Below the pieces are notes generated by a model that was not told the DNA's origin, did no database searches, and worked only from the letters and a program-made list of their open reading frames with translations. Made by a program: the position numbers and the translations under genes. Below, one piece after another: positions 1 through 566 of a DNA stretch of 566 nt. The stretch comes from Escherichia coli (lineage in GTDB: Bacteria > Pseudomonadota > Gammaproteobacteria > Enterobacterales > Enterobacteriaceae), in NCBI RefSeq assembly GCF_003334315.1, contig NZ_QOWR01000131.1; one strand, written 5' to 3'. Positions within the stretch are counted from its first letter, which is position 1, and each line of letters begins with the position of its first letter.

Positions 1-57
1 GTCCTTCATCGCCTCTGACTGCCAGGGCATCCACCGTGTACGCTTAGTCGCTTAACC
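1..57 (-). rRNA. rrl: 23S ribosomal RNA, 5' end (partial; continues beyond the window start)
   Basis: The reverse complement of 1-57 reads GGTTAAGCGACTAAGCGTACACGGTGGATGCCCTGGCAGTCAGAGGCGATGAAGGAC, which matches the conserved 5' terminus of enterobacterial 23S rRNA as I recall it. The mature 5' G maps to plus position 57. Position and orientation fit the 16S-tRNA-23S operon order on the minus strand. Confidence 0.95.
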
Positions 58-162
58 TCACAACCCGAAGATGTTTCTTGCGATTCATCATCGTGTTGCG
101 AAAATTTGAGAGACTCACGAACAACTTTCATTGTTCAGTGTTTCAATTTTCAGCTTGATCCA

Positions 163-177
163 GATTTTTAAAGAGCA
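163..177 (-). promoter_or_regulatory. Spacer boxA-like transcription antitermination element
   Basis: The reverse complement of 163-177 is TGCTCTTTAAAAATC. This resembles the rrn boxA consensus (TGCTCTTTAACAA) bound by the NusB/NusE antitermination complex. It sits immediately 3' of a hairpin on the transcript, in the boxB-boxA order typical of rrn operons. Exact element boundaries are approximate. Confidence 0.6.
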
Positions 178-180
178 AAA

Positions 181-214
181 CTTCGCAGTGAACCTTTGCA
201 GGTACACTCTGAAG
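181..214 (-). promoter_or_regulatory. boxB-like stem-loop preceding boxA in the spacer
   Basis: The minus-strand RNA reads CUUCAGAGUGUACCUGCAAAGGUUCACUGCGAAG. It folds by eye into an interrupted stem (CUUC/GAAG, AGUG/CACU, ACCU/AGGU) capped by a GCAA (GNRA-type) tetraloop. It lies 3 nt upstream of the boxA-like element. Assignment as boxB is by position and analogy, not by a computed fold. Confidence 0.45.
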
Positions 215-240: not shown

Positions 241-316
241 TGGTGGAGCTATGCGGGATCGAACCGCAGACCTCCTGCGTGCAAAGCAGGCGCTCTCCCA
301 GCTGAGCTATAGCCCC
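241..316 (-). tRNA. alaT/alaU/alaV: tRNA-Ala (anticodon UGC)
   Basis: The reverse complement is GGGGCTATAGCTCAGCTGGGAGAGCGCCTGCTTTGCACGCAGGAGGTCTGCGGTTCGATCCCGCATAGCTCCACCA, 76 nt. It has the G3:U70 acceptor-stem pair characteristic of tRNA-Ala, the anticodon TGC (plus 281-283), a T-loop GGTTCGATCC and an encoded 3' CCA. The three spacer copies in E. coli are identical, so the specific operon cannot be assigned. Confidence 0.97.

Positions 317-358: not shown

Positions 359-360
<2 letters not shown>
340..360 (-). repeat. Tandem duplicated palindromic octamer CAAATTTG-N5-CAAATTTG (potential 8-bp hairpin)
   Basis: Seen directly: caaatttg at 340-347 and again at 353-360, separated by ccgtg. The octamer is its own reverse complement, so the two copies can pair as an 8-bp stem with a 5-nt loop. 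The 3'-most two plus-strand bases (359-360) overlap the CA of the tRNA-Ile CCA end. Confidence 0.7.
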
Positions 361-435
<75 letters not shown>

Positions 436-503
436 GTAGAGGTTTTACTGCTCATTTTCATCAGACAATCTGTGTGAGCACTGCAAAGTACGCTTCTTTA
501 AGG
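436..503 (-). other. Internal transcribed spacer segment between 16S rRNA and tRNA-Ile (16S 3' trailer)
   Basis: Non-coding sequence between the 16S 3' end (504) and the tRNA-Ile 5' end (435). The reverse complement begins CCTTAAAGAAGCGTACTTTGCAGTGCTCACACAG, which I recall as the 16S 3' flank of enterobacterial rrn operons. This flank contributes the 3' strand of the 16S RNase III processing stem. Confidence 0.9.
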
Positions 504-566
504 TAAGGAGGTGATCCAACCGCAGGTTCCCCTACGGTTACCTTGTTACGACTTCACCCCAGTCAT
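504..566 (-). rRNA. rrs: 16S ribosomal RNA, 3' end (partial; continues beyond the window end)
   Basis: The reverse complement of 504-566 is ATGACTGGGGTGAAGTCGTAACAAGGTAACCGTAGGGGAACCTGCGGTTGGATCACCTCCTTA. This is the universally conserved 3' terminus of bacterial 16S rRNA, including the anti-Shine-Dalgarno CCTCCT (complement of plus 506-511). The mature 3' A maps to plus 504. Confidence 0.97.

Follow-up and report, generated by a model that had tools for sequence, protein, structure and literature searches.

The spacer copy of the rrn boxB-like hairpin and boxA between tRNA-Ala and 23S rRNA in Escherichia coli

Between the tRNA-Ala and 23S rRNA genes of an Escherichia coli rrn operon lies a stem-loop that is closely followed by a boxA-like sequence. 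Is this pair the antitermination signal of the rrn spacer, and which of its parts matter? The original prediction was that a GNRA-capped hairpin and, 3 nt further on, a boxA reproduce the rrn antitermination arrangement, recruit the Nus factor complex, and keep RNA polymerase resistant to termination through 23S. We analyzed the whole 566-nt stretch of DNA in which the module lies (hereafter, the window) and conclude that positions 214..163 very probably constitute the rrn nut-like signal in its spacer copy, made up of a boxB-like hairpin, a linker, and boxA and working by the mechanism described below.

The window represents the tRNA-Ile/tRNA-Ala type of E. coli 16S–23S spacer, with transcription from the minus strand (Table 1). 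It matches many E. coli chromosomes with 100% identity over all 566 nt, at the rrnH locus, and these matches rule out a non-rRNA context. In strain SC516, the matching operon is flanked by gmhB and dkgB and runs in the order 16S, tRNA-Ile, tRNA-Ala, 23S, 5S, and tRNA-Asp; the gmhB–dkgB locus in K-12 is rrnH. Relative to MG1655 rrnH, the window has just two substitutions, neither of which falls inside the module. Matches to the window are found in 5426/5426 complete E. coli genomes, and the 76-nt module is present in 5409 of the 5426, at a median of 3 places per genome, which is the expectation from three Ile/Ala operons. The segment from tRNA-Ala to 23S comprises 183 nt, and boxA is in the rrn-transcribed (minus) strand, after tRNA-Ala (316..241) and before the start of 23S (57). 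Five open reading frames of 30–66 aa overlap the tRNA or rRNA genes and were dismissed as mechanical. Rfam matches to HPnc0260, Plastid-ycf2, OxyS, and ZNRD1-AS1_3 are far under their gathering scores, fall on tRNA antisense or spacer sequence, and were dismissed as chance.

Table 1. Features of the 566-nt window, in the order of transcription
Feature	Position	Strand	Evidence
16S rRNA 3' end (last 63 nt), cut by the window	504..566	-	Rfam SSU_rRNA_bacteria, model positions 1471-1533, 61 bits; 16S annotation at the identical E. coli locus
16S trailer strand of the 16S leader–trailer (RNase III) helix	440..503	-	Duplex prediction; context, outside the module
tRNA-Ile(GAU)	359..435	-	ARAGORN; Rfam tRNA, 66.3 bits
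tRNA-Ala(UGC)	241..316	-	ARAGORN; Rfam tRNA, 65.6 bits
boxB-like hairpin	181..214	-	Folding, RNAalifold, covariation
UUU linker between hairpin and boxA	178..180	-	Direct sequence reading
Spacer boxA UGCUCUUUAAAAAUC, presumed NusB–NusE/S10 binding site	163..177	-	Seven MG1655 spacers, leader core match, consensus
Pre-23S leader segment, Rfam StyR-44	65..173	-	RF01830
23S rRNA 5' end (57 nt), cut by the window	1..57	-	Rfam LSU_rRNA_bacteria, model positions 1-57; annotation at the identical locus

On the minus strand, positions 177..163 read UGCUCUUUAAAAAUC, and 177..168 (UGCUCUUUAA) match exactly the rrn boxA consensus UGCUCUUUA(A), as given by Dudenhoeffer et al. (PMC6614797). Neither boxA nor nut is represented by a family in Rfam. 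The 10-nt core TGCTCTTTAA is present once in the window; with at most one mismatch allowed, 0.06 chance matches are expected, and at least one match arises in 11/200 shuffles. The spacer boxA and the leader boxA agree at 10/10 core positions in all seven MG1655 leaders and at 13/14 over the first 14 nt. The boxA-like motif predicted at 163-177 is present as written, and when aligned to characterized rrn boxA elements it is identical to the spacer boxA in 7/7 MG1655 operons. The mean pairing probability predicted for 177..163 is 0.30, compared with 0.57 over the entire tRNA-Ala-to-23S segment, and boxA is predicted to be mostly single-stranded and accessible. The distance from boxA to the 23S start is about 105–106 nt.

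Position 11 of boxA (window 167) varies. It is A in the spacers of E. coli, Salmonella, Enterobacter, and Citrobacter (UUUAAAAAUC), while UUUAACAAUC is found in the leader boxA and, for many other Enterobacterales, also in the spacer boxA. An ACA triplet in the leader boxA has been reported as a MazF cleavage site (PMC12541390, 2025), and the A variant UUUAAAAAUC is without this triplet.

Upstream of boxA, the minus strand from 214 to 181 reads CUUCAGAGUGUACCUGCAAAGGUUCACUGCGAAG and folds as ((((..((((.((((....)))).))))..)))). The hairpin has 13 pairs, namely 12 Watson-Crick pairs and a U·U position that is paired in most relatives. Its stem is broken by a 2x2 internal loop (A210 G209 / G186 C185) and by the U204·U191 mismatch, and the cap, at 199..196, is a GCAA (GNRA) tetraloop. 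The hairpin has a free energy of −13.3 kcal/mol, compared with −5.5 ± 2.2 kcal/mol for dinucleotide shuffles (z −3.50), and an equally stable fold was obtained in 1/200 shuffles. Within the 183-nt segment from tRNA-Ala to 23S, the hairpin is also the solution given by both MFE and centroid folding, and the bases of its stem pair with probabilities of 0.85–1.0. It ends 3 nt before boxA (UUU, 180..178). Folding 181-214 of the minus strand had been proposed as a check; it returns the expected stable stem and tetraloop, so that the GNRA-capped hairpin (GCAA, −13.3 kcal/mol, z −3.5) and its 3-nt gap to boxA are both borne out.

A stem-loop that is followed by the U-rich run UUUUGCUCUUU, with 5 U within 8 nt after the hairpin, could also be read as an intrinsic terminator or a pause site after tRNA-Ala. 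We find this scarcely credible. The intrinsic (Rho-independent) type has a G+C-rich, uninterrupted stem and a U run, but here the stem is broken by the 2x2 loop and the mismatch and is G+C-poor near its base, and the U-rich run is the invariant boxA itself. In addition, the position is mid-operon, and 23S and 5S must be co-transcribed. A scan for terminators found no terminator-like site in the window on either strand.

We compared all seven MG1655 operons by aligning the region from the last spacer tRNA to 23S. The UUU linker, boxA, and about 70 nt beyond it are invariant in 7/7 spacers, whereas the sequences upstream of the linker fall into three unrelated hairpin classes. The Ile/Ala operons rrnA, D, and H have the hairpin of the window with its GCAA loop; rrnB, C, and E have AUAUCUCAAAACUCAUCUUCGGGUGAUGUUUGAGAUAU with a UUCG loop; and rrnG has a third version with a GUUA loop. 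Each of the three classes folds (−13.3, −14.9, and −9.4 kcal/mol; z from −3.5 to −5.4). The leaders of the seven operons are built in a similar manner, with two or three different boxB hairpins, then AC or AA, and then the invariant UGCUCUUUAACAAUUUAUCAGACAAUCUGUGUGGGCAC; the leader boxB variants also fold as hairpins. Because three unrelated sequences at one position all form a hairpin, the structure is kept and not the sequence or the GNRA cap. Conservation across the other rrn copies, a further check attached to the original prediction, is complete for boxA (7/7) and breaks down for the hairpin sequence and its GNRA loop (three classes). Since other E. coli spacers have UUCG or GUUA loops, the GNRA cap is not the defining feature of the module; among the E. 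coli operons, it is a feature of the hairpin class of Ile/Ala-type spacers. What is constant in the module is a hairpin of any sequence directly 5' of an invariant boxA.

The same alignment contains a variation closer to 23S. At alignment columns 164-179 (window ~94..79), rrnD and rrnG of MG1655 have a common 9-nt deletion and an altered sequence (CTC---TGAAGTG) upstream of 23S, and differ there from the other five operons and from the window. This variation cuts across the Ile/Ala and Glu spacer classes.

Beyond E. coli, we scanned species-representative genomes for GCTCCACCA (the tRNA-Ala 3' end) followed after 40–70 nt by TGCTCTTTAA, which yielded at least 120 loci. As the scan demanded the exact boxA core, it tests the hairpin and cannot measure the conservation of boxA. 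Among the matches listed, 87 have a tRNA T-arm upstream and represent 72 distinct sequences, and 33 are chance pattern matches in unrelated DNA with no upstream tRNA, which served as a negative control. The genera among the matches listed include Enterobacter, Salmonella, Citrobacter, Serratia, Pantoea, Erwinia, Photorhabdus, Xenorhabdus, and Providencia, as well as Vibrio, Photobacterium, Shewanella, Pseudoalteromonas, Halomonas, Idiomarina, and sulfur-oxidising symbionts. Again among the matches listed, the 3'-most predicted hairpin ends at most 5 nt from boxA in 65/72 distinct gammaproteobacterial spacers, compared with 16/33 controls, and the 45 nt that precede boxA fold with a mean free energy of −15.4 kcal/mol in the 72 spacers, compared with −6.7 kcal/mol in the 33 controls. 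In this same listed set, the distance between the hairpin end and boxA is 0–3 nt in 63/72 distinct spacers, and the tetraloops are GNRA in 28/49 and UNCG in 5/49.

We next aligned 30 distinct Enterobacterales homologues of the window hairpin and scored their covariation. Standard pairs are formed in 96.9% of cells, compared with 86.0 ± 1.0% in shuffles and 29–53% in slid registers. Compensatory changes on both sides of the pair occur in 7/13 pairs (48 cells). The covariation score is 0.473, compared with 0.250, and 0/500 shuffles reach 0.473; these homologues are phylogenetically related, which inflates such shuffle-based statistics. RNAalifold, run on the same 30 homologues, independently found the identical structure. 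A GNRA tetraloop is present in 20/30 homologues as aligned. The upper stem and loop vary freely with covariation, whereas almost no change is seen in the lower stem and internal loop; the internal-loop positions are A in 27/30, G in 29/30, G in 30/30, and C/U in 24/6 of the homologues. The hairpin is boxB-like in that it is a stable stem-loop directly 5' of boxA with a structure conserved without a sequence consensus.

In Rosenbergiella, Tatumella, and Dryocola (loci L012, L022, L037, L038, and L111), an AUAUCU..AGAUAU-type hairpin follows tRNA-Ala. In E. coli, this type follows tRNA-Glu (rrnB/C/E/G). Since it occurs after either tRNA, hairpin classes and spacer tRNA types are not strictly linked, which suggests recombination between spacer types.

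The hairpin at 214..181 might stand outside Nus recruitment and be conserved for some other reason. It could insulate boxA from tRNA-Ala and keep boxA single-stranded, it could serve tRNA-Ala 3' maturation or spacer turnover, or it could bind an unknown factor through the conserved internal loop. Its sequence and loop differ by operon and yet a hairpin is kept in 65/72 spacers among the matches listed, and the internal loop of the Ile/Ala type is nearly invariant while the upper stem covaries; both observations would suit such a role. However, neither the present results nor the cited papers assign one to it, the conservation of the loop may reflect shared ancestry within one order, and the contacts that NusA and SuhB make with nut-like RNA beyond boxA in the rrnTAC (PMC6614801) leave room for a contribution of the hairpin. 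On balance, we regard a separate role for the hairpin as possible but rather unlikely. More specifically, the conserved 2x2 loop (G·G beside A·C/A-U) might be specifically recognized by a subunit of the rrnTAC or by a processing enzyme, which we consider improbable. If true, it would give a function to the rrn boxB, which has been called 'puzzling' because the host has no N protein (PMC10250234).

The reading that we prefer, a hairpin accompanying a functional boxA, agrees with what has been described for E. coli, and the sequence itself offers no evidence to the contrary. A second boxB/boxA/boxC set is described upstream of 23S (PMC10250234), boxA and boxB are present in both leader and spacer in an order reversed relative to lambda (PMC6614797), and the two copies of boxA lie upstream of 16S and upstream of 23S (Singh et al., PMC4807359). 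The claim that the sequence reproduces the rrn antitermination arrangement accordingly finds its counterpart in the literature (PMC10250234, PMC6614797, PMC6614801), and the module is, as had been said, known biology. With regard to factor recruitment, boxA is reported to be necessary and sufficient (PMC10250234), whereas the rrn boxB has no consensus and is reported not to be required (PMC6614797). It follows that boxA alone would be the recruiting element. The predicted recruitment of Nus factors by the module therefore stands for boxA, on the strength of the literature, and does not extend to the GNRA-capped hairpin, whose cap is not defining and whose rrn boxB class is reported as dispensable. 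The doubling time of a Δ7 strain was not significantly changed when boxA or boxB was deleted from the leader (PMC10250234).

The module of the window corresponds to the E. coli rrn spacer boxB–boxA element, whose boxA is identical in all seven MG1655 spacers. It also resembles the rrn leader nut-like element (boxB–boxA–boxC, for example, the rrnGnut RNA of the rrnTAC structures), with which it shares the order, a linker of 2–3 nt, the identical 10-nt core UGCUCUUUAA, and a similar distance to the rRNA 5' end (about 105–135 nt). In contrast, the spacer has A and the leader has C at boxA position 11, the two sequences diverge completely after boxA position 14 with no alignment beyond it, and their hairpins have unrelated sequences. 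A search of the window for spacer boxC (TGTGTGGG, at most 2 mismatches) gave 6 matches where 5.0 are expected, and detected no GU-rich boxC after boxA above chance. On the minus strand, the stretch from boxA to 23S contains a single match, TGTGAGGT at 62..55, which departs from the leader UGUGUGGG at 2 positions. We thus detected no spacer boxC in the window, although PMC10250234 speaks of a boxB-boxA-boxC set upstream of 23S. The plus strand resembles the leader boxC (TCAGACAATCTGTGTGAGCAC, about 461..481), since the 16S trailer is complementary to the leader.

The lambda nutL and nutR sites are alike in that a linear boxA binding NusB–NusE lies beside a hairpin and that a Nus-factor complex forms on RNA polymerase. 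Lambda boxB reportedly adopts a GNRA-like fold (Legault et al. 1998, as cited in PMC10250234), and the hairpin of the window happens to have a GNRA loop. The differences are nevertheless clear. In lambda nut, boxA is 5' of boxB, and this order is reversed in the rrn spacer. Lambda boxB has a short stem and a conserved GNRA-like pentaloop that is recognized by N, and E. coli is without N protein; the hairpin of the window carries a 4-nt GCAA loop on an interrupted 13-bp stem, and its loop varies between operons. The reversed order, the long broken stem, and the non-conserved loop rule out a lambda-type nut site.

Downstream of the module, Rfam family RF01830 (StyR-44) matches 173..65 over the full model length with 123.3 bits, against a gathering score of 54. 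The match starts at the fifth boxA nucleotide and stops 8 nt short of 23S; it covers the RNA downstream of the module and overlaps only the 3' 11 nt of boxA. One might take the region for an independent small regulatory RNA, StyR-44, with the boxA-like sequence merely as its 5' end. The 123-bit match at 173..65 speaks for this, as does the cloning of a 109-nt RNA with a northern-blot signal in S. Typhi and E. coli (PMC2943607), but its discoverers described it as processed from longer precursors and maybe a metastable intermediate of rRNA maturation (PMC2943607), a promoter scan found no promoter-like site in the window on either strand, and the RNA sits exactly between boxA and the 23S processing stem. 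An independent StyR-44 gene is very improbable in our judgment, and StyR-44 probably represents an intermediate of processing rather than a gene of its own. Because the match starts inside boxA, the 5' end of the cloned 109-nt RNA falls in the presumed NusB–NusE site, and this end could reflect cleavage in boxA or protection by bound proteins.

The 3' part of 65..173 supplies the leader strand for the leader–trailer helix of 23S. Window positions 81..50 (~25 nt of the spacer end and the first 23S nucleotides) are predicted to form a −54 kcal/mol duplex with L001:7003-7058, which is the 23S 3' end and flank. This duplex competes with the local 3' hairpin of the StyR-44 Rfam model. On the other side of the tRNA genes, the 16S trailer (503..440) and the leader of its own operon are predicted to form a duplex of −67.8 kcal/mol, the known leader–trailer (RNase III) helix, a concept described in PMC10250234. 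The predicted 16S leader–trailer pairing reaches the leader boxA, where GAGCAGU (453..447) is complementary to ACUGCUC.

The mechanism that we propose for the module is drawn from the leader and spacer elements of E. coli. As the pre-rRNA emerges from RNA polymerase after tRNA-Ala, the hairpin would fold, and the NusB–NusE(S10) heterodimer would attach to the adjoining single-stranded boxA. Acting with NusA, NusG, SuhB, and S4, NusB–NusE would establish, re-establish, or reinforce the rrn antitermination complex before 23S, an untranslated gene of 2.9 kb. The resulting complex would be resistant to Rho, pause less, and elongate faster. The complex would stay tethered to boxA ~105 nt upstream of 23S and would thereby also keep the 5' strand of the leader–trailer helix of 23S close to the RNA exit channel until its 3' partner has emerged, to the benefit of folding and RNase III processing. 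In this mechanism, boxA would be the functional core and the hairpin its structurally conserved companion. NusB–NusE binding, antitermination, and chaperoning at this particular boxA are what we infer from the E. coli rrn literature. The function of the spacer boxA is said to be the subject of work by Berg, Squires & Squires in 1989 and by Pfeiffer & Hartmann in 1997 (as cited in PMC10250234, PMC6614797, and PMC4807359); in the latter work, mutation of the spacer boxA reportedly reduced 23S synthesis.

Which of these functions is the primary one has been argued in both directions. RNA polymerase is described as being modified at the boxA of leader and spacer (Dudenhoeffer et al., PMC6614797), and boxA- and NusB-dependent suppression of Rho termination has been seen in reporter and in vitro work (summarized in PMC4807359 and PMC6614797). 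Singh et al. (PMC4807359) argued that, at rRNA, ribosome biogenesis rather than protection from Rho is the principal task. In the 'delivery' model, which Huang et al. (PMC6614801) extended to the spacer nut-like element, the complex grips nut-like RNA and presents 5' regions to 3' regions that emerge later. On such grounds, the spacer boxA–Nus complex may act mainly as an RNA chaperone or processing aid for pre-23S and not as a device for termination resistance; the element and the proteins would be the same, and the primary function would be delivery or looping. We give this reading real, though not majority, credence. The delivery model is explicit for both leader and spacer elements (PMC6614801), the assembled rrnTAC raises co-transcriptional RNase III cleavage from ~3% to >30% in vitro on the 16S leader (bioRxiv 10.64898/2026.03.17.712431), and the 106 nt of RNA between boxA and 23S hold the leader strand of the predicted −54 kcal/mol duplex. 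Against its being the main function stands the Rho suppression in reporter and in vitro work (PMC4807359, PMC6614797). The chaperone and antitermination functions are, moreover, not mutually exclusive, and the anatomy of the module fits both roles. The lower 23S synthesis upon spacer boxA mutation, for which Pfeiffer & Hartmann is cited (PMC4807359), also weighs against a chaperone as the principal role. Of the predicted termination resistance through 23S, the modification of RNA polymerase at the spacer boxA stands on the literature, and its rank as the main role in vivo is disputed.

The module is real and intact in sequence and structure, as had been claimed for the spacer elements, and it is ordinary textbook biology that was already known. 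Its value is that of a positive control for a genome scan: the signals of an rrn spacer are recognizable from raw sequence. To the picture of the rrn spacer the analysis makes small additions, namely that no recognizable boxC accompanies the spacer boxA, that the GNRA cap is specific, among the E. coli operons, to the Ile/Ala type, that the hairpin has strong covariation support, and that its internal loop is conserved.
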